A stretch of DNA of 56,562 bases from an uncultured Verrucomicrobiota bacterium (lineage in GTDB: Bacteria; Verrucomicrobiota; Verrucomicrobiia; Limisphaerales; J093). A program made the position numbers and the translations under genes. The stretch covers positions 1 to 56,562 of the forward strand of contig CAYNCT010000004.1 in assembly GCA_964396005.1 (NCBI GenBank). The letters are read 5' to 3'. Positions 2,211-55,280 of this stretch are shown piece after piece. Numbering within the stretch: the stretch's first letter is position 1; each line of letters opens with the position of its first letter. The notes beneath the pieces are model-generated. The model ran no database searches. It was not told where the DNA came from and saw only the letters and a program-made list of their open reading frames with translations.

Positions 2211-2759
2211 ATGCAAAAGCTGGAACAGCAACTCGACCGCTTCCTGCGCCGGTCTCCGACCGTCGGGGAAGGGGTGTACATCGCCCGGACCGCCGTGGTG
2301 GTTGGCGACGTGACGCTCGGTCAAGGCGCCAGCGTTTGGTACCACGCGGTGCTGCGCGGCGACATCAACCGCATCGTCGTGGGACAGTACTCCAACGTGC
2401 AGGACAACGCGGTGCTGCATCTGGCGGACGATTATCCGTGCCTGGTGGGGGACTGGGTAACGATCGGTCACGGAGCGATCGTCCACGCCTGCACCGTGGA
2501 GGACGAAGTGCTGATCGGCATGGGCGCGACGATCCTGGACGGGGCCGCGATTGGCGCGCAGTCCATCGTGGGCGCCAACGCCCTGGTAACCCAGGGCACG
2601 CGGATTCCGCCCGGCTCGCTGGTGCTTGGAGCGCCCGCGAAGGTGGTCCGGGTCCTGACCGCCGAGCAGCGGGCCGGGATCCGTTGGTGGGCGGAGAAGT
2701 ATGTGGGCAACGCCGCGTACTGCCTGAAACACGGGATCAACGTCGGGGGACCGATGTAA
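2211..2759 (+). CDS. Gamma carbonic anhydrase family protein (YrdA/PaaY-like)
   Basis: Hexapeptide repeats; NVQDNAVLH and TIGHGAIVHAC supply the three Zn-binding His. Confidence 0.92.
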   Translation: MQKLEQQLDRFLRRSPTVGEGVYIARTAVVVGDVTLGQGASVWYHAVLRGDINRIVVGQYSNVQDNAVLHLADDYPCLVGDWVTIGHGAIVHACTVEDEVLIGMGATILDGAAIGAQSIVGANALVTQGTRIPPGSLVLGAPAKVVRVLTAEQRAGIRWWAEKYVGNAAYCLKHGINVGGPM

Positions 2760-2808
2760 TTTGCTGGTCCGATTCAGCCGGCCACCCGTAGATTGTCCGA
2801 AACGCACC

Positions 2809-4170
2809 ATGACTCACCGCCGCCTCCACCGCCGCAGTTTCCTCCGACGCTCGGGCGCCACCCTTCTGGGACTGGGCTCGCTCAGCGTACCGCAACTAAT
2901 CCCGCCCCGGGTCCTCGGAGCCGCCTACTCGACTCCCAGCGCCAAGGACCGGCTGAACATCGCAATGATCGGCGTTGGCGGCATGGGCAACGGGCATCTG
3001 GGCTACATGCTCGCCCGGCAGTCCCGCGGCGATGTGAACGTGGTCGCCGTGTGCGACGTGGATGACCAGCGGCTGGCGAGCGCGGTGAAAAGCACCGGCG
3101 GCAAGGCCACGCCGTACCGCGATTACCGCTACATCCTGGAGCGCCGGGACGTGGACGCGGTCGTCATCGCCACGCCGGACCATTGGCACGCCTGCCAAAC
3201 CGTCCACGCCTGCGAGTCGGGCAAGCACGTGTACGTGGAGAAACCTGCGTGCGGCACAATCGAGGAGGGCAAGGCCATGATGCGAGCCGCGCGCGACAAT
3301 CGGCGCTGCGTGCAGGTGGGCTCTCAGGGCCGCTCGCAGCGCGAGGCCTTTTACGCGCACCAGTACATCGCCAACGGCATGCTGGGTCGCGTCCACACCG
3401 TGAAGTGCTGGCACTACGCCACGCCATCCGATGACCAGCCGGTGCCCGACAGCGAGCCGCCGCGGGAATTGGACTGGGACCTGTGGCTGGGTCCCCTGCC
3501 CTGGCGTCCTTACAACGCCCGTTACCTGCACGGCGTTTTTCGCTGGCTGCTGGAGTCCGGCGGCGGCCAGATTCGCGACCGTGGCGCCCACGTGATGAGC
3601 AACGCGCTGCACTTCCTCGGCGCCGATGACACCGGACCGGTCACCATCGAAACCAAGGGACGCGTGCCCACGCGCGGCTTGTGGGATTCGGCGATCGAAA
3701 TGGAGGTGACCTACCAGTTCAAGAACCCCGACTGGACGCTCATTTGGGCTCAACCGGGCGAAATGGTGCCCTACCCGGATCGCGAACGGGTGAAGAACGA
3801 GGGCATTCGCGAGGGCTACGGCGCGGTCTATTACGGCGACAAAGACAAACTGGTGGTCTGGGTCGGCGACGGCCAGGTGTACACCGAGAAAAAGGCCCTC
3901 GAGTATCAGCCGCCACCGGGCGGGGTCCAGGTGCCGAAGAGCCCGCGGTTCGATCACCACGAAGACTGGTTTGAGGGCATCAAGACCGGACGCAAGACCA
4001 TCATGAACATCGAGGCCGGGGTGGCCACGGCAAACCTGTGCGTGCTGGGCAACCTTTCGCTCATCCTGGGCCGCAAGCTCAACTGGGATCCCGTGACACG
4101 TGAAATTGTGGGCGATGAGGCCGCCCGACGCTTGATGAGCCGTCCCCAACGGTATCCCTACGTGCTTTGA
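2809..4170 (+). CDS. Gfo/Idh/MocA family oxidoreductase, Tat signal
   Basis: MTHRRLHRRSFLRRSG Tat motif; IGVGGMG Rossmann motif, IATPDHWH, VYVEKP, LDWDLWLGP. Start moved to ATG 2809. Confidence 0.92.
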   Translation: MTHRRLHRRSFLRRSGATLLGLGSLSVPQLIPPRVLGAAYSTPSAKDRLNIAMIGVGGMGNGHLGYMLARQSRGDVNVVAVCDVDDQRLASAVKSTGGKATPYRDYRYILERRDVDAVVIATPDHWHACQTVHACESGKHVYVEKPACGTIEEGKAMMRAARDNRRCVQVGSQGRSQREAFYAHQYIANGMLGRVHTVKCWHYATPSDDQPVPDSEPPRELDWDLWLGPLPWRPYNARYLHGVFRWLLESGGGQIRDRGAHVMSNALHFLGADDTGPVTIETKGRVPTRGLWDSAIEMEVTYQFKNPDWTLIWAQPGEMVPYPDRERVKNEGIREGYGAVYYGDKDKLVVWVGDGQVYTEKKALEYQPPPGGVQVPKSPRFDHHEDWFEGIKTGRKTIMNIEAGVATANLCVLGNLSLILGRKLNWDPVTREIVGDEAARRLMSRPQRYPYVL

Positions 4171-4210
4171 ACTGCAACCCGACCTCGCCCTTCCACCCGC
4201 TCTGAATCCC

Positions 4211-4834
4211 ATGAAAGCGAACTCTCCAATCGCGCTCGGCGTCGCGCTCACCACGGCCGCCACCCTCGGCCCGGCCGCGGACAGTTCTGCCGTGGACGCG
4301 CTGCTGGCCAAAATCCGGAACCCCGACGACAAGATTCGCGGCCCCGCCTGGCAGGGCGCCGGCCCCCTCGGCGCACCCGCGGTTGTTCCGCTGGCCGCCG
4401 TGATGACCGATCCCGACTTCGAGGTCGCCCGCTGTGCCCGCCGGGCGATCGAGGTGATTGTGCGGCACGCCGGCCGGCCGGGAGCGGAAGCCGAGCGTCG
4501 CGCCGTGGCAGGCGAACTGGTCAAGCTGCTGAGCAGCGACGCCCTCGCGGTGCGCCGCCACGCCCTGTGGATGCTTTCTGAGATTGGCGACGACGAGGCC
4601 GTGCCCGCGATAGCCCGCCTGTTACGCGATGCCGACGCCCGGGAAGACGCCCGCTGCGCCCTGGACCGGATTCCGGGCCCGCCCGCGACCGAGGCGCTCA
4701 AAAACGCTTTCGCCGCCAGCCCGGAGGATTTCAAATACGCCCTCGCCCACAGCCTGCGCCTCCGCGGCGAGCGGGTGGACGGTTATCCCTCCCGAAAACT
4801 GGTGCCGACCAAGAAGACCTCGGTGACAGCGTGA
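4211..4834 (+). CDS. Secreted HEAT-repeat (PBS-lyase-like) protein
   Basis: Signal-peptide-like N-terminus; repeats such as VRRHALWMLSEIG and AREDARCALDRIPG. Confidence 0.8.
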   Translation: MKANSPIALGVALTTAATLGPAADSSAVDALLAKIRNPDDKIRGPAWQGAGPLGAPAVVPLAAVMTDPDFEVARCARRAIEVIVRHAGRPGAEAERRAVAGELVKLLSSDALAVRRHALWMLSEIGDDEAVPAIARLLRDADAREDARCALDRIPGPPATEALKNAFAASPEDFKYALAHSLRLRGERVDGYPSRKLVPTKKTSVTA

Positions 4835-4888
4835 GTCGGGCGGATCAGGGAATCGTCCCGGCAATCGTCCGCCACGACTCGAAACGAA

Positions 4889-4914
4889 CCGGGCGACCGT
4901 TGCGGGTCGCCCGG
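4889..4914. terminator. GC-rich hairpin between convergent HEAT and ilvB genes
   Basis: CCGGGCGACC-gttgcg-GGTCGCCCGG is a perfect 10-bp stem. Only a weak U-run (TTCGTTTCG) follows on the minus strand. Confidence 0.5.
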
Positions 4915-4945
4915 GGCCGCCGAAGCACAGCGGACCGCCCGCCGA

Positions 4946-6757
4946 TCAATAGATCATGTCCTTGACCGTGCGACCGGCCGGGATGAACGGCAGCACGTGC
5001 TCGGTGTAGGGCGTGATCACATCGAGGACGTAGGGTTCATCGGTGTCGAGCATCCGCTGGATCGCGGCGCGGAGGTCGCGACGATAGAGCACCCGCTCGC
5101 ACTTCACGTTGAACGCCTTCGAAATGGCGACGAAGTCCGGATAGATCTGTTGGGCATTTGCCGGGTCTCCGAGGTAGGTGTTGCCCCGGGTGCCGCCGTA
5201 AAACCGATCCTCCCACTGCACCACCATCCCAAGGTGCTGGTTGTTCAAGACCAGCGCCTTGGCGGCGACTCCTTCGATGTGAGCCATGGCCAGCTCCTGG
5301 ATGTTCATCAGGAACGATCCGTCGCCATCAATGTCAATCACCTCCCGGTCCGGACAGGCCACCTTGGCGCCGATGGCGGCCGGGTAACCGAATCCCATCG
5401 CGCCCAGGCCCGCGCTGGTGATGAACTGCCGCGGCTCGGAAAAGTGGTAAAACTGCCCCGCCCACATCTGATGCTGACCGACGCCGGTGGTGATGATGGC
5501 TTCCCCGCGGGAAAGCTCGTAAAGCAGCGCGATCGCCTCCTGGGGAAGGATGACGTCGGCCGTGTTGCCGTTCATGTGATCGCGCACGTGCTGGGACTTG
5601 AGCACCTCGTCGGTGACCTGGTATCGGAACGGCGCCTTGGCTTTCCATTCGGCGATCTGGTTGTGCCAGGCGGTGAACTTCTTCCGCACGCGTTGCTCCG
5701 CCAACATCTGATTGAGGCGCCGGAGGGCGTAATGAATGTCGCTGTGGATGGGGAATTGAACGCGCCGGTTCTTGTTGATCTCCGATTCGTCCAGGTCCAC
5801 ATGCACGATGGTCCCGTGCTCGCAGAACTTGTCCACCTTGCCGGTGACGCGGTCGTCGAAACGCACCCCAAACGCCAGCAGGAGATCGGCCGCATTGACC
5901 GCCCAGTTGGCGTACGCGGCGCCATGCATGCCCAACCACTTTAAGGACAGCGGGTCGGTTTCCGGGTACGCCCCGCAACCCATGATGGTGGTGGTCACGG
6001 GAACGCCCGTGGAGCGGGCAAACTTCCGCAGCTCCTCCGCGGCGCCGCTGGTGATGATCCCGCCGCCACAGTAAAGCACTGGCCGCTCCGCTTTTTCGAT
6101 GAGGCCGAGGATGGGAGCCAGCTCGTCGTCCGTCGCCCGGTAGGTCGGGTTGTAGCCGCGGAGATTGACTTCCGCCGGAAAGGATGCGCGCGCTCGTTGC
6201 TGTTGGATGTTCTTGGGCACATCAATCACCACCGGCCCGGGCCGGCCGCTCTCCGCGATGTAGAACGCCTCTTTGACCACCCGGGGAATGTCGTTGATGT
6301 CGGTGACCAGGTAACTGTGCTTCACGATGGGCAGCGTGACGCCAAAGATGTCAGTCTCCTGAAAAGCGCCTTTGCCGATCATCGCCTGCGGCACCTGGCC
6401 GGTGATGGCCACCAAGGGCACCGAGTCCATGTACGCGTCCGCAATGCCGGTCACCAGGTTGGTGGCACCGGGCCCGCTGGTGGCCATGCACACGCCCGCC
6501 TTGCCGGTTGCGCGGGCGTAACCTTCCGCGGCGAAGGTGCCGCCCTGCTCGTGCCGGGGCAGCAGCACGCGGATCTTGGATCGGGTCAGCGCCTGGTGAA
6601 TTTCCATGCTGGCGCCGCCGGGATAGGCGAAGATGTACTCGACGCCCGCCTTTTCGAGGCTGGCGACGAGCAGCTCGCTGCCGGCCCTTTCCCGCGTTGC
6701 GGCGTCGGGCGCCTTGCGGGGTTTCTGCCTGGATTTCGTCTTGGTTGCCTTGCTCAT
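4946..6757 (-). CDS. ilvB: Acetolactate synthase large (catalytic) subunit
   Basis: [60 protein letters not shown]. Start moved to ATG 6757. Confidence 0.96.
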
Positions 6758-30508: not shown

Positions 30509-30967
30509 TTACGGCCCCAGCCGCAGCCGGTAAAAGGCTGCGGCGGCCCCGCGGGGAAGCGTCACCCGCAAGGTGTCGCCCACCGGCGCTGGGTTGACGG
30601 GAACCGCCTGCCAGGCCGCTGGGTCGCCCAGCGAACCCGCCTCCTCCACCACCACTGCCCCCAGCGCTGCCGGCCAGGCGAGCACAAGGTCAGACCCCGC
30701 CAGACCCGCTGACAACATGGGCGGCACGGGCGGCAGCGTGGCCCACGGCCCCGGCCAGAAGCCGGTCTGCAGCACGTAGCCCCCGCCCACCGCAGTCCCG
30801 GCCTCCGGCTGGCCCACGGTGATGTCGGCCGCGTAGCCGCCGCCGCTGATGGTTCCGCCACCGCCATCAATCGTTATCCATTGCAGCTCGTACGCCCGAG
30901 CGTCGGAAATGGCCGCGCTCAGCAGGGCCGCGAGGACCGCCAGTTGAATGGTACGCATGGTTCTCAT
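30509..30967 (-). CDS. Small secreted protein with Gly-rich hairpin and FYRL-type C-terminal domain
   Basis: Signal peptide; WITIDGGGGTISGGGYAADITVGQPEAG...GGGYVLQTGFW; C-terminus LVLAWP...W...FYRLRLGP. ATGA overlap with the upstream gene. Confidence 0.8.
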   Translation of the reverse strand: MRTMRTIQLAVLAALLSAAISDARAYELQWITIDGGGGTISGGGYAADITVGQPEAGTAVGGGYVLQTGFWPGPWATLPPVPPMLSAGLAGSDLVLAWPAALGAVVVEEAGSLGDPAAWQAVPVNPAPVGDTLRVTLPRGAAAAFYRLRLGP

Positions 30968-32799
30968 GGCGTGGGCGGGAAAAAGCTGCCCCACATCGTT
31001 TCCGCCGTATGCACTCGCGCGACCCATCGCACGGAGTCCGGGGTCGCCGCGCTGTGGACCTCAATTTGAAGGGAATCCCCAACCGCCTGCAGTCGCACCT
31101 GCCAGGCCGGATCGTCCTCACCCAGTTCTACCACCGAGGGCGTGCCGACAAAGGTAGCCGGGCCGCCCCCGACACGTTTGATGACGCCACGCGCGGCGTA
31201 ACCCCCGGAGATTTGAAAGTTAGGGGGCAGGCCCTGACTCCGGCCGACGACCAGAAGATCGAACGTAACCGTCTGATCCCCGCCCAAACGCAGCGGCGCG
31301 CCCAAACCATCCAGCGAAAGGACAGTTCCCGAGGCACCCGGTCCGGTCTGCCCGCGCAGTACATAGACCGAGGTCTGGGCATCGCCGAGGTCCCCGAAGT
31401 TCCCGGCTGATTGAGCCATCTGCCCATGCTGGGTGGCGAGGGCCTGTGTTCCGCCGGGAATGATCGAGTACGCACCGAGCGCCTGGTTCGCCGCACCACC
31501 CGCCACTGTGGAGTTGGGCCCGTGAGCCCAATTTCCCCCGCCTCCGCCCACGGTGGCCCCGAAAGACTGCGCCCAGTTTTCGGTCCCGCCGCTCACGGTG
31601 GCATAGTCCAAATGCGCCCGGTTCCCAGCACCGCCGCTCACCGTGGTGCCCGGACCAAAGGCCTCGTTGCCCTGCCCGCCGCCGACCGTCGCCGCGTCCA
31701 CGAGCGCGCGGTTGGAATCACCGCCCCCGACGGTAGCCGCAATGCCATTGGCCAGGTTGGCAGATCCGCCGCCGACCACGGCATAGGCGCCTTCTGCCTG
31801 GTTGCTCGCGCCACCGGCCACCGTGGTCGCGGTGGCCCGAGCGAGGTTTTGGACTCCGCCGCTCACCACGGCGTACCCGTTGGTCGCCGCGTTACTCGCG
31901 CCGCCGGCCACCACCGCGGCCCCGCCGCTCACGTAGTTGCTCAACCCGCCGCCGATGAAGGCATGGTTCGCGTTGCTGATCACATTGGGGTTGGCGGCTG
32001 CACCACCGCCCGCGATTACGGCGCCCGCGGAGCCGAGGATGGCGTTTGCCTCATGACCTCCGATCAGGTTGGGCCCGACCGCACGCGGCTCAATGAGCAG
32101 GGCCCGTTGGTTGAACACGCGCACTTCCAGCGGCTGGGCATCCGTGGTGCCGAGAAAGTTGGTCGGCCCCGTGCCCGCGTTGCCGCTCAGCAACCACGCC
32201 GGCGGACTGACCGCGAACTTACCGCCGCTCAGCGAAACGAGGCCGCTGCCCGTTAAAGGCAGCGCCAACGCCGAGGCCGAAAGCACGGCCCCGGGGGCCA
32301 GGCTGGCCGCCAAAGCTGCGTGAATGGCTGTGGGCGCTGCGGTGATCTGGATCGCCGGCCCCAGGGTGACGAAGCCCGGCGGCGGGGCGGCCAGGCCGAC
32401 GCGGCCGGCTCCATGCGCCGCCGCAGTCGTTTCGCCCCCCGGCGACGGCCGGACCGAAATCTCGAGCCATCGCTCCGCGCTGCTGAAGCCGTCCGGGCCG
32501 GTGTAAAAAACGTCGAAGAACGGCTCCCACCGGAAGTTCACCGGCACCGTGAACAGACCGTCGCGCACGGCCACGTGCGGCTCGATGACCTCGGCCAGTT
32601 TCGCCCCGTCGGGGCCGCCCGTGAGGAGGAAGTAAAAATCGTGCGGTCCATTGACCGCCCGCCCCTCGTGGGTCAGCCGCCCCTGCACGGTCACCGGAAT
32701 TTCTTGGGCCGCGAGGCTCGCGACCGTCGTCAGAGTCAGCAGGCCGTGGAGCAACCGGCGCCCGGTCCGGCTGGTCTTGAAGTGCATGGTCGTTTTCAT
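30964..32799 (-). CDS. Secreted tail-fibre/adhesin-like protein with 15-residue beta-roll repeats
   Basis: Signal peptide; N-domain VQGRL...FTVPVNF...WLEISVR; about 12 tandem 15-aa repeats (e.g. NGYAVVSGGVQNLAR, GIAATVGGGDSNRAL); C-domain ending VRWVARVHTAE. Confidence 0.8.
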   Translation of the reverse strand: MKTTMHFKTSRTGRRLLHGLLTLTTVASLAAQEIPVTVQGRLTHEGRAVNGPHDFYFLLTGGPDGAKLAEVIEPHVAVRDGLFTVPVNFRWEPFFDVFYTGPDGFSSAERWLEISVRPSPGGETTAAAHGAGRVGLAAPPPGFVTLGPAIQITAAPTAIHAALAASLAPGAVLSASALALPLTGSGLVSLSGGKFAVSPPAWLLSGNAGTGPTNFLGTTDAQPLEVRVFNQRALLIEPRAVGPNLIGGHEANAILGSAGAVIAGGGAAANPNVISNANHAFIGGGLSNYVSGGAAVVAGGASNAATNGYAVVSGGVQNLARATATTVAGGASNQAEGAYAVVGGGSANLANGIAATVGGGDSNRALVDAATVGGGQGNEAFGPGTTVSGGAGNRAHLDYATVSGGTENWAQSFGATVGGGGGNWAHGPNSTVAGGAANQALGAYSIIPGGTQALATQHGQMAQSAGNFGDLGDAQTSVYVLRGQTGPGASGTVLSLDGLGAPLRLGGDQTVTFDLLVVGRSQGLPPNFQISGGYAARGVIKRVGGGPATFVGTPSVVELGEDDPAWQVRLQAVGDSLQIEVHSAATPDSVRWVARVHTAETMWGSFFPPTP

Positions 32800-32895
32800 G
32801 GTTTGGTTCTGTTTTTCGGTTTGGTCGCCCCCGCCCGACTCCGAGCAAGGGAAAAGCCTCGGCTTCACGGCTAACACGCTCGTTCAGCAGAGGAA

Positions 32896-32991: not shown

Positions 32992-33561
32992 ATGGCGACG
33001 CCGCGCACACGCACCGTGGGAGACGCCCTCGAGGCGACCGCGTACCTCCTCGCGCCCGTCCTGCTGCTGGGCGTGCTGGGGCGCATCGAACCCGGGATTA
33101 ACCAGTTCGGGATCCGGCCCCGGGAGTGGAGCGGGCTGATTGGGGTGATTTGCAGCCCCTTCCTGCACACCAACATGGCCCATCTCACGGCCAACGCGGT
33201 GCCGCTGTTTGTGCTGCTGATGCTCCTGTTTTGGGATCCCCACTACTTCCCGCGCCGCACGCTGCTGCTCATCTGGTTCGCCAGCGGCCTGGGCACCTGG
33301 CTCATCGGTCGTGGCGGCGTGGTCCATATCGGCGCCAGCTCGATCGTGTACGGCTTGATCGCCTACCTGGTGTTTGCGGGCATCCTGATGCGGCGGTTCG
33401 ACTCGATGCTCATCGGCCTCGGGGTGTTCCTGATGTACGGCGGCGGCATCTTCGCGGGCGTCGTCCCGCAAGGCGGCAACGTCTCCTGGGAGGGGCATCT
33501 CTGCGGGGCGGTTGCGGGCGTCTGGGTGGCCTTCAACAACCACGACCGAAAGCGGAAATAA
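32992..33561 (+). CDS. Rhomboid family intramembrane serine protease (second copy)
   Basis: SPFLHTNMAHLTAN, HIGASSIVYG, SWEGHLCG. Confidence 0.88.
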   Translation: MATPRTRTVGDALEATAYLLAPVLLLGVLGRIEPGINQFGIRPREWSGLIGVICSPFLHTNMAHLTANAVPLFVLLMLLFWDPHYFPRRTLLLIWFASGLGTWLIGRGGVVHIGASSIVYGLIAYLVFAGILMRRFDSMLIGLGVFLMYGGGIFAGVVPQGGNVSWEGHLCGAVAGVWVAFNNHDRKRK

Positions 33562-34972: not shown

Positions 34973-35127
34973 GGTCGGGGGCCGCAAGCGCGCGTGCCCC
35001 GTCGGGCCAGCTGCAAACAGAGCCATGTCCATCACGAGGCCAGGTCGGTTGGAGGTTCCCCCACCGGACCTGGGGAAAGGAAAACCCCGCCGGCGGCGGC
35101 ACGCGCTCGACCGGCGGGGAACCCCAG

Positions 35128-35318
35128 CCGGAACGATTCAATTGAATGCCGGCTGGCCCGTGCCACCGGCCGGTTCGGTCGGGCCACCCGGCCGGCCGTC
35201 AAACGCAGGAGGCTGCCACTGAAGGGTGTGGTGTTTCCGTGCGCACGGCTGGGCGGCAAGTAGCCACCCAGAACGGCCGAGTTGGCCGTTCCACCCAGGA
35301 TCTACTGCATCGTTCCGG
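35128..35318. mobile_element. ~190-bp MITE/REPIN-like dispersed element, copy 1
   Basis: Outer inverted repeat CCGGAACGAT...ATCGTTCCGG. The 146-bp core (35151-35296) aligns without gaps to copies 2 and 3 (27 mismatches to copy 3 by hand count). Confidence 0.8.
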
Positions 35319-35363: not shown

Positions 35364-37435
35364 TCAGTTGCGGGCCCGGAAGTACTGCTGCGCCCCCTGA
35401 CTGGCGGGCGCGAGGCGGTACGGGCTGGCGGGATTGCCGGGCACGTCGGTGTAGGGCCCATTCACCGTCGCGGCCTGCTGCAACCGGCCGGTAAACGTGA
35501 CCACGACGTCGGCGCCATCCCGGGCCACCTGGAGGGTGGGCACCTCGGACCCCGCCATGATGCGGATGTTGTCGAAACCTACGATCTCGTTCCACCAGGA
35601 GGTGAACCCGCGAATCTCGATGATCAGGTCGGTGGCTCCGGCGGGGATGGCGTAGGTGACGTCACGGAAGGTCAGCCCCAACTGGTTGCTGTTGCCGTGG
35701 TCAACGTCCACGAAGTATTTCTTCGACCCATCCGGAGCGCTGTAGCGCGCCAGCCGGACGGGAGTGCTATTGATGCCGTTCGGGTAGGCCATGATGTCGA
35801 GAAAATCACTGGTCTCGAAATCCAGGAACGTCGCCGCGAGGGCGATGGTAAGCCTGACGTTGTCCTTGCCAGCCACGTTGACCGGTCGAAGTTGAACCGA
35901 CCGGTAGCCCCCCAGGTCCCCGATTCGCTCGGGCGCCCATTTGTTGAGGCCGGAACCCGCAAAGAACGCCGTGCCCTCGAACCCGTTGAAGGGTCCGCCG
36001 CCGAAGACTGACCCGGGAGGCGTGTCGTTCGGTCCGTTCAGCAGCACCAAAAGCGGCACGACCACCTGCTCGCTGTCGCCCGCGGGGAGATACGAGTCCA
36101 CCGTGATCTGCCCGCTCAACACCACGTTGGCGATGGCGTCGCCCAACAGATCCCACGTGCCGCTGGTGATCGGGCTGGTATCATTTCCCCCCGCTTGAAT
36201 GGAGACGGACATTTCAATGCCGCCCGCGCCCCCGGAGTTAAAGACCGCAACTTCGAAGTCGTACAGCCCCGCCGTGGCGAATTCCGCGTCGCCGTAGCGC
36301 GCCCGATGTGTCCCCGCCGCGTCTTCGACGATCACGTTATCCTCCGGCCCGAAACCGTCGCGGTTCCGATCAATGCGCAAACGGGCGCCGTCATCCATCC
36401 CGAGCGCGAAGCTGTAGCGGCCCGCCGCCTTTACGTTCAGCTTGCCCCGGGCCACCAGGCCCCACACACCCGTCGCGTTGCCCGGCACCGCTTGGTCCAG
36501 CAGCCAATCCCCGGAGGAACCGTCGGAGTAGTCGAGATGGGTGGTCGTCTCCGTCGCCTTGACTGACGGCTTGGTTCCCGCCGCCATGGCGTCCACATCG
36601 GCCAAACTTGCCACCGTGGGGGGAATCACTCGCACCATGGTCGCCACCGTGGTGGCGCCCCCGGGCAGCACGTCCCCCATGAGGTTCCAGTTGGCCGAAA
36701 CGTCGGCCACCGTGAATGCAGCCGGCACACCGGCCGCCACCGGTGACTGCTGGCCACTACCGTGCCGCCTGTTGGCTCGAACGTGGCGGTGGTGCCGATG
36801 CTCGAGGTCAGCATGTCGTCGTGGTCCGCGGCTGAGAACACCAGAACGCCCTGGCGTGCGGTGGCGAAACGCGAGGGAGGACCGCCGGGCCCTTTGACAA
36901 TCACGTCGCCGGGATAAGCGGTATCGGCGGTGGTGCCATCGTCATCGGTCACGTTGTAGCCGAGAGTCGTGAGGTGATCCGCCAGACCTTGAGCCGCCGC
37001 GGCGTTGGGTGAAAAGACCACGGTGGCGTTCGCCTTGTCCCGGGCGAGCCAGCGGATAGTATTGCCGATCAAGCGCAGCGTGTCCGCCGAAGCGCCGCCG
37101 GGTCCGGCGGTCAACGCGCCATCCCAGGCCAGCAGCGCCCGGCGGCCGGCGGTCGGCGCGGGAACGCCCACATACGACACCTCCGAGCTGCGGGCCCAGT
37201 AGATCGGCCCGATCTGATCGCTGGCCGTGCCGTCAATATTCTCCGGGGCGTGTGGCGGCTCGGACTTGAAGCCTCCGGTCACGGTGTAGCGTGGATTCGG
37301 CCCGATCGAGCCATCGGTGTTGAAGTCCTCGACCCACACCGTTTCGGCCAGGCCGGTGCCGGTCGCCGCGGACAGCAGTCCCGCTGCCGACAGGAGCCGC
37401 AGGCAGGCGAGAGTTCGGGTTGGTTGTCCTCTCAT
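35364..37435 (-). pseudogene. Secreted PA14-like domain protein split by a 1-bp frameshift at about 36741-36742 (real or assembly error)
   Basis: The 5' ORF has the signal peptide and reads ...TVVASSH, then junk. The 3' ORF starts VAAGVPAAF. Only CG lies between CAC (36745-43) and GTG (36740-38); adding one C gives HPVAAG and a 690-aa protein. PA14-like GMDDGARLRID / FNSGG; ends QQYFRARN. Confidence 0.75.
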
Positions 37436-45131: not shown

Positions 45132-45322
45132 ACGGAACGATCCAATTGACTGCGGGGGCGAACGAGCCACTGGTCCGTTCTGTCGGGCGACTCGCCCGAC
45201 CGTCGAACGCACAAGGCTGCCATTGAAGCGGGTCCGGCTGCCGGGCGTAGGGCTGGGCGGCAAGTTGCCGCCGAGAACGGCCAAGTTGGCCGCTCCACCC
45301 AAAACCTACCCCGCCGCTCCGG
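45132..45322. mobile_element. ~190-bp MITE/REPIN-like dispersed element, copy 2
   Basis: Core 45155-45300 (146 bp) has 25 mismatches to copy 3 by hand count. Begins 1 nt after the TGA of the upstream gene. Confidence 0.8.
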
Positions 45323-51513: not shown

Positions 51514-54500
51514 ATGAAAACCCTGAAAACCCGTCTTGGTCTCATCGGGGGCGTCGTTGCGGTGGTGGCGACGCTTACCCTCGCACGCGCCGCCGAACGT
51601 TGGGAGCCGGTAGCCGGTGGCGTGCCCGGCTGGGTCTTGGACACACTGGCCGTCACCTTTGAGCACGCCGCGGATGGCACCCGGGCCCGGTTTTCCGTGA
51701 CCATCCCCAATCCGTGCCATCGGCTGACCTTCGGCGAGCCCCTGCGCGACGGCCGGCAGGTCATCGTGCCGTGCGGCCTGGAAGTCCTGTTAGGGCTGGC
51801 CTGTCCCCAGGTATTGTCCACGCAAACCGGCCAGCTCGATCTCGGACCGGTCGAGCCGGGTGCAGGCGAGCTGGTGATCCGCGCCGACGGCGGCGGCTTG
51901 GTCCGATTCCCGTTCGACGTGCCGGCGCGTGCCCCGGGCGCCACGCCCGAGGCGCTGCCGGTAATCTCGGCGGTGCTGGTCGAAGAGCGCGAGGTGATCG
52001 TCACCGTGGAAGCTCCGGCCGGGGTGAGGCGTGTGACGTTGGAGGGACGCTCCCGCCTCGGGGCCGGTGCGTGGGTGCCACGCGCCGTGGAACGGCTGCC
52101 GGGCAGTGGCGGTACGGTGACCTTCCGGATCGCGAAATCCGAGACGGTGGAAATGCTGCGGGTGCGGGGGGACGCCACCGAGGCTCTGCCATCCCGCCAC
52201 TACGAGGGCCGGTCGGAATTCCAAGGTGAGGCGATTGCCGGTACGGCGGCCAACCCGCCGGCGGACGCCTGGCGCAATTTCGATGGCATCGCCGCGCCGG
52301 AGGCTGGCGGTGGCGGAAGTCGCCCGGTGGTGGAGTCGGACATCTGGGTCGTGCGCGGCGACCGGCTGTATTTCTTCAACCAGTATCGTGGTCTGCAAGT
52401 GGTGGACTTAACGCAGCCGGATCGCCCGGTCCTCTCCGGGGCGCTGCAGATCCCCGCCGCCGGCGAGCAGATGTACCTGCTGGGCGACCAGCACGCGGTC
52501 CTGCTCGCCCGGGCCGGCTGCGATGGCAGCGCGGACCCCGGCAGCCAGGCGCTGATCGTGAACGTGGCGGGCGGGGCGCCGGTGATCGTGAAATCGCTGC
52601 CGGTACCGGGATACATTCAAGAAAGCCGGCTGGTGGGTTCGGCCCTTTACGTGGCGTCGCAGACCTACCGCGTCGTCCCACTGCCACCGGGAAGGCCGGG
52701 CCAACCGCCCGGGCAGCAGTGGGAATACGGCACCACGGTGACGGCATTCGACCTGAGCGATCCGACCGCGCCGGTGGCCAGGGATTCCCTGTGGTTTCCG
52801 GGCTACGGCAACGTCGTGGCCGCCACGGATCGCTTCCTGTTCATTGGCCTCCAGGTCCCGACCGACTGGTGGCAGAGCGAGGTGCGACTCCTTGACATCA
52901 GCTCTCCCGACGGCGTGATGAAACCCACCGCCACGGTCCGCCCCGCCGGGCGCGTGGACGACAAGTTCAAGCTCAACCTCGACGGCGACGTGTTCACCGT
53001 CATCTCGCACGTCTGGCGTTGGGAGGACCGCGACGAAACGGCCAGCGTGCTTGAGACGTTCTCCCTGGCCGATCCGGCTGCGCCGCGCAAGCTGGGGCAA
53101 ATCCGCGTCGGCGAGGGCGAAGCCCTCTTTGCCACCCGGTTCGACGGCGACCGCGCCTACATTGTGACCTTCGAGCGAATTGATCCGTTGTGGATCGTGG
53201 ACCTGCGCGACCCGACCCAGCCGCGGCTGCACGGCGAGCTCGAAGTGCCCGGCTGGTCCACGTACATCCAGCCTTTGGGCGATCGCTTGGTGACCGTCGG
53301 GGTCGGCGGCACCAACAACACTCAGGTCGAGGTGTCGCTCTTCGACGTGCGCGACCCGGCCAAGCCCGCGCTGTTGTCCAAGGTGCCGCTGGGCGAAAAC
53401 CACTCGTGGAGCGAGGCCAACTACGACGAAAAGGCGTTCACCGTGCTGCCCGAGGCCGGCCTGATTCTGGTACCCTACCAGGGCTACGCTCCCGGTGGCC
53501 ATACCTCGCGCGTCCAGTTGATTGACCTCGCGGAAGACACACTGCAGGCCCGGGGCGTGATCGAGCACGCCATGCAGGCGCGGCGGGCCACCCTGCGCGG
53601 CGACCGCATCCTCTCCTTGTCCGGCCGTGAACTGTTGACCGTCAACGCCGCAGACCGCGACCGCCCCCAGGTGACCAGCAACCTCGAGCTGGCGTGGCCG
53701 GTGGATGACGTGTTCGCCGTAGGCAATCATCTGGTCCTGATCGAGCGCGGCAGCGCCTGGTGGGGCGGAAACACGCCCGGCGCCCGGGTGGTCAGCGCGA
53801 CCGATCCCAATCGGCTCCTCGGCAAGCTGGCACTGCCGCTCGCGCTGCCGATCACCGCCAGCACCCGCATCGGCGATTTCCTTTACGTGGCGCAGTTCGA
53901 TCCGGCCGTCGCGGGCGTGGAAGCCGGGAAAGAAGGCGAGCCACCCCCGCCGCCGAACCTGTACCTCACCGTGATCGAGCTGGCGGCGCTGCCCGAGCTA
54001 CGGGTGGCCGGGACCACCGCGACGCGGGTCGAAGCCGCCGGCTGGCTGGGCAACCTCAAAGCCTTTGTGCCGCGTCCGGAACTATTGGTCCTGACCGGCG
54101 GGGCTTCGGGCTGGTGGCGCGGACCGTGGGGAGTGGACTTCCTGCCGGGCGGCCGTTGGCTGCCGTGGTGGTGGAGCGGCGCCGCCGGCGGACAGTTCTT
54201 CGCTTTCGATGTCACCGACCCGCGAGCGCCGCGCTTCGCTTCCTTCACCCAGTTGAGCACCGACAACACCGCCTGGGGCTTCGGCCCGACGTTCCTGGTG
54301 AACGGCTTGTTTTACCTCAGTCACCAGAGGTCCGAGTTTGTTCCGGACGCGCAGGCGCAGCCCCCCAGGGTGCCCGACCTGACGCGCGGCCGCTGGGTCA
54401 CCCGCCACTTCCTGAGCGTGGTGGATTTTGCCGACCCGGCCAATCCCACCCTCCGCCCGCCGGTCAACCTGCCCGGCCAACTGGCCGCCGTCACGCACGC

Positions 54501-54999
54501 CGGCGAGGTCCTTTACACCACCGGCTACCACTGGAACGAAAAAGGCGAGACCGACTGGACGCAATTCCTCGATGTCCTCGCCTACGATGGCGTCGAGGCC
54601 TCGCTGGTCACGTCGCAGCGCATAGGCGACGGCTGGACCGGCCAGCTCGCCACCGTCGCGGATCACCTGATCCTGGGACGCCACGACTCCGCGAAACCAT
54701 CCACGCGCCTTGAGACGTGGCGCCTCTCCGAGCAAGGCGTCCTGCTTCAGGTCGGATTAACGGAAACGCCCGGCTACCTCGCTCAACTGACCCGGCTCGA
54801 AGAACTCCTACTCGCCTCCGCCGGGTCGGCGGTGACGGTCTGGGACACCACCCAGCCAACCAACCTTCGCCAAGTGGGGCAAGGTACCGGCGACGGCTGC
54901 GTGTATCCAAGCTTGGACAACGGCCTCGCTCGCCAGGGCACCACGCTCTGGCTGCCGCAAGGCGACTACGGGGTCGTTGAATTGAAGCTGACGCCGTAA
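51514..54999 (+). CDS. Large secreted protein with beta-propeller domain (Beta_propel-like)
   Basis: Signal peptide; VVESDIWVVRGDRLY, GEALFATRFDGDRAYIVTFERIDPLWIVDL, GELEVPGWSTYIQP. Confidence 0.88.
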   Translation: MKTLKTRLGLIGGVVAVVATLTLARAAERWEPVAGGVPGWVLDTLAVTFEHAADGTRARFSVTIPNPCHRLTFGEPLRDGRQVIVPCGLEVLLGLACPQVLSTQTGQLDLGPVEPGAGELVIRADGGGLVRFPFDVPARAPGATPEALPVISAVLVEEREVIVTVEAPAGVRRVTLEGRSRLGAGAWVPRAVERLPGSGGTVTFRIAKSETVEMLRVRGDATEALPSRHYEGRSEFQGEAIAGTAANPPADAWRNFDGIAAPEAGGGGSRPVVESDIWVVRGDRLYFFNQYRGLQVVDLTQPDRPVLSGALQIPAAGEQMYLLGDQHAVLLARAGCDGSADPGSQALIVNVAGGAPVIVKSLPVPGYIQESRLVGSALYVASQTYRVVPLPPGRPGQPPGQQWEYGTTVTAFDLSDPTAPVARDSLWFPGYGNVVAATDRFLFIGLQVPTDWWQSEVRLLDISSPDGVMKPTATVRPAGRVDDKFKLNLDGDVFTVISHVWRWEDRDETASVLETFSLADPAAPRKLGQIRVGEGEALFATRFDGDRAYIVTFERIDPLWIVDLRDPTQPRLHGELEVPGWSTYIQPLGDRLVTVGVGGTNNTQVEVSLFDVRDPAKPALLSKVPLGENHSWSEANYDEKAFTVLPEAGLILVPYQGYAPGGHTSRVQLIDLAEDTLQARGVIEHAMQARRATLRGDRILSLSGRELLTVNAADRDRPQVTSNLELAWPVDDVFAVGNHLVLIERGSAWWGGNTPGARVVSATDPNRLLGKLALPLALPITASTRIGDFLYVAQFDPAVAGVEAGKEGEPPPPPNLYLTVIELAALPELRVAGTTATRVEAAGWLGNLKAFVPRPELLVLTGGASGWWRGPWGVDFLPGGRWLPWWWSGAAGGQFFAFDVTDPRAPRFASFTQLSTDNTAWGFGPTFLVNGLFYLSHQRSEFVPDAQAQPPRVPDLTRGRWVTRHFLSVVDFADPANPTLRPPVNLPGQLAAVTHAGEVLYTTGYHWNEKGETDWTQFLDVLAYDGVEASLVTSQRIGDGWTGQLATVADHLILGRHDSAKPSTRLETWRLSEQGVLLQVGLTETPGYLAQLTRLEELLLASAGSAVTVWDTTQPTNLRQVGQGTGDGCVYPSLDNGLARQGTTLWLPQGDYGVVELKLTP

Positions 55000-55229: not shown

Positions 55230-55280
55230 GGCGCCTCGGGGCGGGCGCGCTGCCTGCTCAACCACGCGAGTCGAGCTTGG

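Follow-up and report, generated by a model that had tools for sequence, protein, structure and literature searches.

Genes and features at the locus

The window analysed here, a stretch of 56,562 nucleotides that forms contig C4, belongs to the 3.49-Mb assembly (66% G+C, 224 contigs) of a soil-type member of the Verrucomicrobiota whose closest named relatives are Pedosphaerales or Pedosphaera-type Verrucomicrobiota MAGs. An earlier note on this DNA had proposed that three otherwise unrelated secreted proteins of the window, here called A, B and C, share a domain that is terminal in A and B and internal in C, and the coordinates and sequences that it gave for the three segments are as described there.

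Protein A (30509-30967, minus strand) is a product of 152 aa that consists of a signal peptide, a Gly-rich module of around 50 aa and the tail that is the subject of this work. Its signal peptide, MRTMRTIQLAVLAALLSAAISDARA (30893-30967, minus strand), was read from the sequence, fits orthologues that also measure 152 aa and contains a helix at residues 3-16 (P0151 numbering) in the AF2 model of the protein. The adjoining N-module, YELQWITIDGGGG..GGGY..GQPEAG..GGGYVLQTGFWPGPWA (30743-30892, minus strand), has 1,715 homologues. The FYRL-type tail itself (30512-30739, minus strand; stop codon at 30509-30511) ends in ...AAAAFYRLRLGP and served as the seed of the family described below; the profile search of the genome places the tail match on protein A at 30515-30739.

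The ATG of the protein A gene overlaps the stop codon of an upstream gene of 637 aa (30964-32877, minus strand), so that the two are translationally coupled through an ATGA. The upstream protein is secreted, carries about 12 Gly-rich repeats of 15 aa and looks like a trimeric fibre. This gene pair is kept in synteny in a close relative (L105), and in a Pedosphaera MAG an A-like gene lies between an astacin gene and the gene of a 937-aa protein with Peptidase_S74, a tail-spike chaperone domain; together, these neighbourhoods suggest that protein A-like proteins are a small partner for fibre-like proteins. Beside the fibre/protein A operon lies a divergent rhomboid-family gene of 189 aa (32992-33561, plus strand), an arrangement that is kept in L105. 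We considered its product as a processor of the tail and set it aside because the tail has no transmembrane segment to cut; moreover, this gene order was shared by a close relative only.

Protein B as called (35364-36740, minus strand) comprises 458 aa and combines a weak PA14 match with a shorter version of the tail. This short variant, PTLQVARDGADVVVTFTGRLQ...QQYFRARN followed by the stop codon (35367-35552, minus strand), shows reciprocal profile matches with the tail of protein A and is kept at the C-terminus of orthologues of ca. 690 aa. The passenger in front of it (35553-36740, minus strand) consists of the weak PA14 domain (Pfam PF07691, E = 8.8e-4), with which the orthologues are annotated as well, and an uncharacterised beta domain. 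That the 458-aa call comes without a signal peptide is only due to a frameshift near position 36,740, perhaps an assembly error or else a recent inactivation, that splits the gene: its 5' fragment lies in another frame (36626-37435, minus strand) and encodes the signal peptide, MRGQPTRTLACLRLLSAAGLLSAATGTGLA / ETVWVEDFNTDGS..., and it is this frame that the N-termini of the full-length orthologues (ca. 690 aa, up to 85% identical) match. Protein C (51514-54999, plus strand) is a Beta_propel protein (PF09826, E = 5.5e-60) with an internal Ig/FN3-like domain at residues 144-217 (51943-52164, plus strand; end ...EMLRVRGD) that gives a remote profile match to the tails.

The window further contains three copies (35127-35318, 45133-45307 and 55279-55470, all minus strand) of a dispersed intergenic repeat of ca. 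190 nt, of which about 80 copies with around 81% identity are spread over 55 contigs of the genome. One copy lies 46 nt downstream of the stop codon of gene B. The repeat has no Rfam match, carries terminal inverted repeats (CCGGAACGAU...AUCGUUCCGG), has a predicted fold of great stability (-106 kcal/mol, z = -5.6) and looks MITE- or REP-like. A second repeat family of ca. 166 nt is present in 60 copies elsewhere in the genome.

A large family of C-terminal domains

Pairwise BLAST between the three segments returned nothing significant, and their relationship is visible to profile methods only. After translating the genome in six frames from stop to stop (37,779 frames of at least 50 aa), we searched it with jackhmmer, using the last 76 aa of protein A as seed. 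Convergence came after nine rounds, at 62 domains in 61 frames that include the tail of protein B; conversely, an iteration seeded from the protein B tail recovers protein A with E = 5.9e-9. The tails of A and B are thus members of one domain family, as the earlier note had supposed, despite the lack of significant pairwise similarity.

Profile A1, built from an alignment of 52 tails, matches 72 domains in 71 of the genome frames and nothing in the reversed database. As many as 64 of these 72 domains end 0-6 residues short of a stop codon, while internal copies make up about 11% in this genome, and the terminal position counts as an independent signal because the search made no use of position. 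The consensus of the tails reads P..PP.L.i....G.l.lsW.g.pg.y.lE.s.dL....W..v......g...vtdp....rFYR[LVA][R.]x1-4-stop. Within it, the Arg of [FY][FY]R is invariant and followed by 3-6 residues in 92% of tails, and Pro is the last residue in 38% of them. A genome-wide profile count, which the earlier note had proposed in the expectation of many C-terminal hits on proteins with signal peptides, therefore returned many matches that are mostly C-terminal and also enriched in signal peptides (see below).

For protein C, the proposal of a common domain holds in part. Its segment aligns collinearly to A1, with E = 1.8e-6 when hmmsearch is restricted to protein C (Z = 1), and hhalign of 29 orthologous C segments against A1 gives a probability of 80% and E = 1.4e-5, placing ...LRV on ...FYRL; the domain is conserved in the orthologues from residue ~145 onward. 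Yet the segment is internal and never entered the jackhmmer iteration. On these profile comparisons, it is a remote, internal relative of the tail family.

A separate case concerns contig C26 (strand coordinates 2356-6705, minus strand), where a frame of 1363 aa that ends in two tandem FYRL domains is followed, after one in-frame stop, by a frame of 86 aa encoding a third FYRL domain. A nonsense mutation, an error of sequencing or read-through might account for this stop.

The tail as an FN3 offshoot that lacks the G strand

When supplied with A1, AF2 models the isolated tail of protein A as a confident beta-sandwich (pLDDT 91.6) with strands at positions 12-16, 19-25, 31-36, 46-47, 53-55, 58-64 and 71-76, of which the last is FYRLRL. 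The tail is modelled equally well within full-length protein A (57-sequence alignment; tail pLDDT ~93, pTM of the whole 0.49). Foldseek searches against the PDB found weak generic matches only, namely cytokine-receptor FN3 domains, CBM56 and CBM21, and sHSPs, all with E>=0.16. At the profile level, A1 matches FN3con 4u3h with E = 2e-4, aligning its positions 8-78 with residues 15-83 of 100 and leaving the G strand unmatched, and it also matches contactin FN3 domains and the Fn3-like protein 3mpc. The alignment to FN3con identifies FYRL with the FN3 F-strand motif Y-x-[FY]-R-V, and ordinary FN3 core positions also account for the strand-B Trp of the tail, its L-x-P turn and its Pro-rich start. 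We do not read the shared pattern as a recognition motif in its own right, since its conserved residues (initial Pro, strand-B Trp, strand-F Y-x-R-V) are those of an FN3 core.

The Pfam model for FN3, PF00041, matched neither A nor B nor any of 10 further tails at E up to 10, nor did it match the tandem FYRL proteins P0004, P0011, P0035 and P0054; in P0018, it matches only a separate N-terminal domain (residues 31-103). The tails thus have the core pattern of FN3 and a remote profile similarity to it but do not reach the gathering score of PF00041, and instead of the seven strands with a C-terminal G strand of that fold the protein ends 3-6 aa past the F-strand Arg. Taking profiles and models together, the tail is a predicted and so far unannotated FN3 offshoot without FG loop and G strand: a beta-sandwich of ca. 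65-75 residues with strands A, B, C, C', E and F that ends 3-6 residues after [FY][FY]-R-[LVA].

Proteins with tandem copies agree with this assignment. Among the 150 best library matches, 73 proteins carry arrays of short period (70-82 aa) and 47 carry canonical ones (>=86 aa), the period of canonical FN3 arrays being 86-100 aa. The difference between the two corresponds approximately to the length of FG loop plus G strand, which confirms the missing G strand. The top library match, P0001, is a canonical array with 20 PF00041 stretches; in the true short-period proteins, the tail domain is never recognised by PF00041. The two kinds of array also differ in placement, with 69 of the 73 short-period arrays ending within 8 aa of the C-terminus as against 6 of the 47 canonical ones (13/47 within 25 residues). 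Tail arrays reach up to 8-10 copies. Non-covalent anchoring repeats such as SLH and LysM also typically vary in the number of their C-terminal copies.

Unrelated secreted carriers and interchange with curated sorting signals

The claim that the carriers are unrelated secreted proteins is supported. A crude signal-peptide rule is satisfied by 39 of the 59 carrier frames with an intact 5' end, compared to 21% of 3,454 background frames, and several of the rule-negative carriers have signal peptides that are visible by eye. The 330 residues upstream of 42 tails contain unrelated domains that include Laminin_G_3 (LamG), LTD, PKD, I-set (Ig), Big_9 and cadherin-like domains as well as cyclophilin, Exo_endo_phos, di-haem oxidoreductase (peroxidase), PD40 and PAP2/VCPO; PA14 is a further passenger domain. 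Some passengers belong or come close to the choice-of-anchor families, which were named by NCBI for their variable C-terminal anchors: two proteins match the GloVer repeat TIGR03803 (E = 7e-22), choice-of-anchor Q is matched with E = 1.5e-7 (23 bits for a cut-off of 25), and there is a faint match to choice-of-anchor J. Other passenger regions match M36 peptidases whose curated relatives depend on myxosortase or rhombosortase.

A cross-phylum exchange of C-terminal tags can be followed on the Gly-rich N-module of protein A, which is itself an uncatalogued family with the consensus Y-x-L-x-W-x-T-[IV]-D-G-G-G-G...G-Q-P-x-A-G...G-G-G-Y-x-L-x-G-G-F-W. It occurs in tiny secreted proteins that carry a YLP-box in Chloroflexota/Anaerolineae and the FYRL tail in Verrucomicrobiota. 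Among the 121 best of the 1,715 homologues, 60 are FYRL-terminated, a proportion that is biased because 4 of the 10 query sequences of the N-module profile carried the FYRL tail, and around 55 end in [IV]-Y-L-P-L-x-x-R (46 by pattern and about 9 by eye among 13 classed as "other"). The latter ending is curated by NCBIfam as "YLP-box putative sorting motif", and its model NF053834 scores 14.0 on P0157 with a cut-off of 10. P0155, a single protein among the 121, ends in IPTL-CTERM instead, with scores above the cut-offs of both TIGR04174 (22.9 versus 20.5) and PF18203 (21.6 versus 20.8). Judged by sequence, the existence of a swap between FYRL tail, YLP-box and IPTL-CTERM on the N-module family is not in doubt, and the tail is positionally equivalent to these known tags.

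AF2 renders the N-module as two beta-hairpins of low confidence (pLDDT 50-60). It matches the N-terminus of PamT, a CPR pilus tip protein (NF058579), faintly and far below the cut-off (E = 0.03 for protein A and 5.6e-6 for P0154). We also considered that the N-module of protein A might fill the open edge of the tail in cis and rejected this, as the full-length model (pTM 0.49) shows no confident docking.

The passenger of protein B proved unsuitable as another test of tag exchange across phyla, because all of its 120 listed homologues are Verrucomicrobiota orthologues; nearly all of these have the same tail, and a few have CHRD in its place.

Distribution and database status

In a profile search that gave 80 matches in this genome, 40 out of 41 relatives proved to have the domain, their counts ranging from 45 to above 134, the latter being the scoring cap, and a 2.6-Mb genome of the same order (G032) had no tail match. 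Across the phylum, 113 of 251 genomes have a match when at most 21 candidates are scored per genome. The best matches fetched from 20 genomes of other orders and classes are located at the extreme C-terminus in 19 cases, and these 19 tails end in FYR[VIL] plus 0-6 residues. As canonical FN3 domains are matched too, the 70,748 proteins with E<=1e-3 among 1.84 billion cluster representatives set an upper limit only.

Searches with the Pfam and NCBIfam models on 14 tails and tandem proteins brought up nothing relevant, and full-text literature searches found no description of the tail; a literature search for "YLP-box" found no paper. The FYRL tail family is real, large and uncatalogued.

Search for a cognate machinery

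The earlier note had also proposed profiling for membrane machinery that co-occurs with the tail, and here our searches found no candidate. Within 4 kb of the 71 tail genes, the only recurrent real proteins are encoded by prepilin-type, H-X9-DG-like genes, of which the genome has 50. A pilin-like gene lies within 500 nt of 10 of the 71 tail genes compared to 3.4 +/- 2.0 for random long frames, an approximately 3-fold enrichment that concerns 14% of the genes. ABC ATPases among the neighbours were dismissed as generic, and two further neighbour "families" turned out to be translated dispersed DNA repeats.

DUF1559 (PF07596) pilins were rejected as obligate machinery because they are not co-distributed with the tail at phylum scale. 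The families f41, f51, f54, f56, f58 and f59 are rich in tails and have no PF07596 match at E<=1e-5, while the DUF1559-rich families f36, f43 and f57 have no or marginal tail matches; nine candidates were scored per genome in this comparison, so that small numbers could be missed. Secretin (PF00263) is present in 247 of the 251 genomes and is uninformative because it is near-ubiquitous. The T9SS translocon SprA/Sov (TIGR04189) gave no match over the cut-off in this genome and 20 relatives, and none of 14 control genomes matched either.

What the tail may do

Our best explanation, to which we give about even credence, is that the tail acts as a shared C-terminal targeting or anchoring module. 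It starts from the family and its fold class, the strict terminal position, the secreted carriers and the positional equivalence with known tags, and it is the combination of the terminal rule, exported but unrelated carriers, many copies per genome and tag interchange that favours a shared targeting function. In this genome, at least 64 Sec-exported proteins whose passengers are unrelated end in the tail, which would fold after export and, remaining uncleaved, would dock non-covalently to a common component of the envelope, which would keep or route the cargo at the cell surface. Docking could plausibly proceed via the exposed edge of the F strand and the free C-terminus, and additional tail copies would confer more avidity. 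With the G strand missing, a partner might add a strand, an attractive mechanism with precedents in the chaperone-usher and Pam pili, though one that we wholly infer.

The main rival, which we judge to be rather unlikely, sees the tail as a generic FN3-derived structural module that was spread by 3'-end domain accretion and serves as a stabilising, solubilising or spacer cap with neither a common partner nor a targeting role. Such a cap would account for conserved positions that coincide with the FN3 core, for a profile that also matches canonical tandem FN3 proteins such as P0001, for internal and tandem copies and for the failure to find any machinery. However, a spacer needs no last place, yet around 89% of single copies and 95% of arrays are terminal, a bias that canonical FN3 arrays do not share; nor would it be expected that the tail always ends 3-6 residues past the F strand or that it replaces curated sorting tags on homologous passengers.

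Much the same distribution that speaks for targeting could be produced by an outer-membrane export signal similar to the CTDs of the T9SS, with a dedicated translocon that recognises the folded tail and removes it after transport. The T9SS CTD pattern is matched in that an Ig-like beta-sandwich ends diverse Sec-dependent proteins, from tens to over 100 in each genome, at their extreme C-terminus, but we think an export role improbable: the models TIGR04183, PF18962 and PF13585 do not match the tails even with E as high as 10, the domain boundary has no conserved cleavage motif beyond the Pro-rich start of FN3, and arrays, here of up to 8-10 copies, are not known from export signals. Neither this genome nor any of 20 relatives gave a match to SprA, a result to be read with the fact that no control genome matched. 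Given the variable number of tandem copies and the missing cleavage motif, non-covalent retention is more likely than a T9SS-like export signal, and a binding or retention module also fits better with the tandem arrays and the occasional internal copies.

The tail might instead be a CBM-like module whose ligand is a polymer or substrate of the environment and not the envelope of the cell itself. The chances of this seem slimmest to us. The carriers, among them cyclophilin, nuclease/phosphatase-family proteins, haem peroxidase and adhesin-like giants, share no substrate, and CBMs are not confined to the extreme C-terminus. Tandem copies are compatible with such a role, as is a local profile match to the discoidin-type glucan-binding domains 2rv9 and 4zxe (E about 1e-4); the weak fold matches to CBM56 and CBM21 point in the same direction but are, like all fold matches, non-significant (E>=0.16).

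The shared targeting or anchoring module can be extended to a specific model that we regard as unlikely, in which the tail would mark cargo for an undescribed system of surface display in Verrucomicrobiota. An envelope anchor protein would donate a strand to the open F-strand edge of the tail, which would fix 2-3% of the proteome to the outer surface, amounting to tens or even more than 100 enzymes and adhesins in each cell, and the tag would be functionally interchangeable with the IPTL-CTERM and YLP-box of other phyla.

In soil, water and gut alike, Verrucomicrobiota are major degraders of polysaccharides. Independent of the mechanism, one uncatalogued domain stands at the end of 2-3% of the proteins of Pedosphaerales-type genomes, which makes the tail a candidate for a Pfam or NCBIfam model with an immediate gain in annotation. 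It also gives a computable definition of a putative surface proteome and a testable way into what may be a new mechanism of sorting or anchoring. Their exchange on a single small passenger family links FYRL tail, IPTL-CTERM and YLP-box, and solving one of them may inform the others.

Comparison with known systems

With FN3 domains (PF00041), the tail shares the strand order, the Pro-rich start, the strand-B Trp, the Y-x-L/V-E of strand C and the L-x-P...Y-x-R-V of the E-F region. It differs in that no member reaches PF00041, FG loop and G strand are absent, and the domain is almost always the last element of the protein. The pilins of donor-strand-exchange systems (chaperone-usher pili of the Pap/Fim type and Pam pili) resemble the tail as Ig-type sandwiches that lack the last strand and have an open edge; in the Pam pili of CPR bacteria, truncated Ig-like pilin domains are completed by donor-strand exchange (PMC13278184). 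For the tail, no donor strand, chaperone or usher candidate was identified, and polymerisation is not indicated.

The earlier note had drawn an analogy to T9SS CTDs and PEP-CTERM, of which the common position and the unrelated secreted carriers have stood up, whereas kinship by model match or by presence of SprA has not. The CTDs of the T9SS of Bacteroidota (type A, TIGR04183/PF18962; type B, PF13585) are, like the tail, small Ig-like beta-sandwiches at the extreme C-terminus, and a genome typically has tens to more than 100 of them, on Sec-dependent proteins whose passengers are unrelated. The tail is found in the same way at the extreme C-terminus of diverse Sec-dependent proteins but has no sequence match to these CTDs (none of the three models at E up to 1-10), this genome and 20 relatives gave no SprA match, and tandem arrays occur. 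SLH, LysM, GW and cell-wall-binding repeats are C-terminal, vary in copy number and are found on many unrelated exoproteins like the tail, to which they have no relationship in sequence or fold, and the host of the tail is diderm.

Lastly, PEP-CTERM, MYXO-CTERM, GlyGly-CTERM, IPTL-CTERM and the YLP-box are short motifs, most short C-terminal signals consisting of a transmembrane helix and a basic cluster with sortase-like processing, while the tail is a folded, soluble domain of ca. 70 aa without a hydrophobic helix. The models for tripartite signals (PEP-CTERM, IPTL-CTERM, LPXTG, GlyGly-CTERM and MYXO-CTERM) do not match the tails, which are rich in beta structure and have no hydrophobic stretch. 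What the tail has in common with the sorting signals curated by NCBI, IPTL-CTERM (TIGR04174) and the YLP-box (NF050076/NF053834), is that they occupy the same position on homologous passengers.
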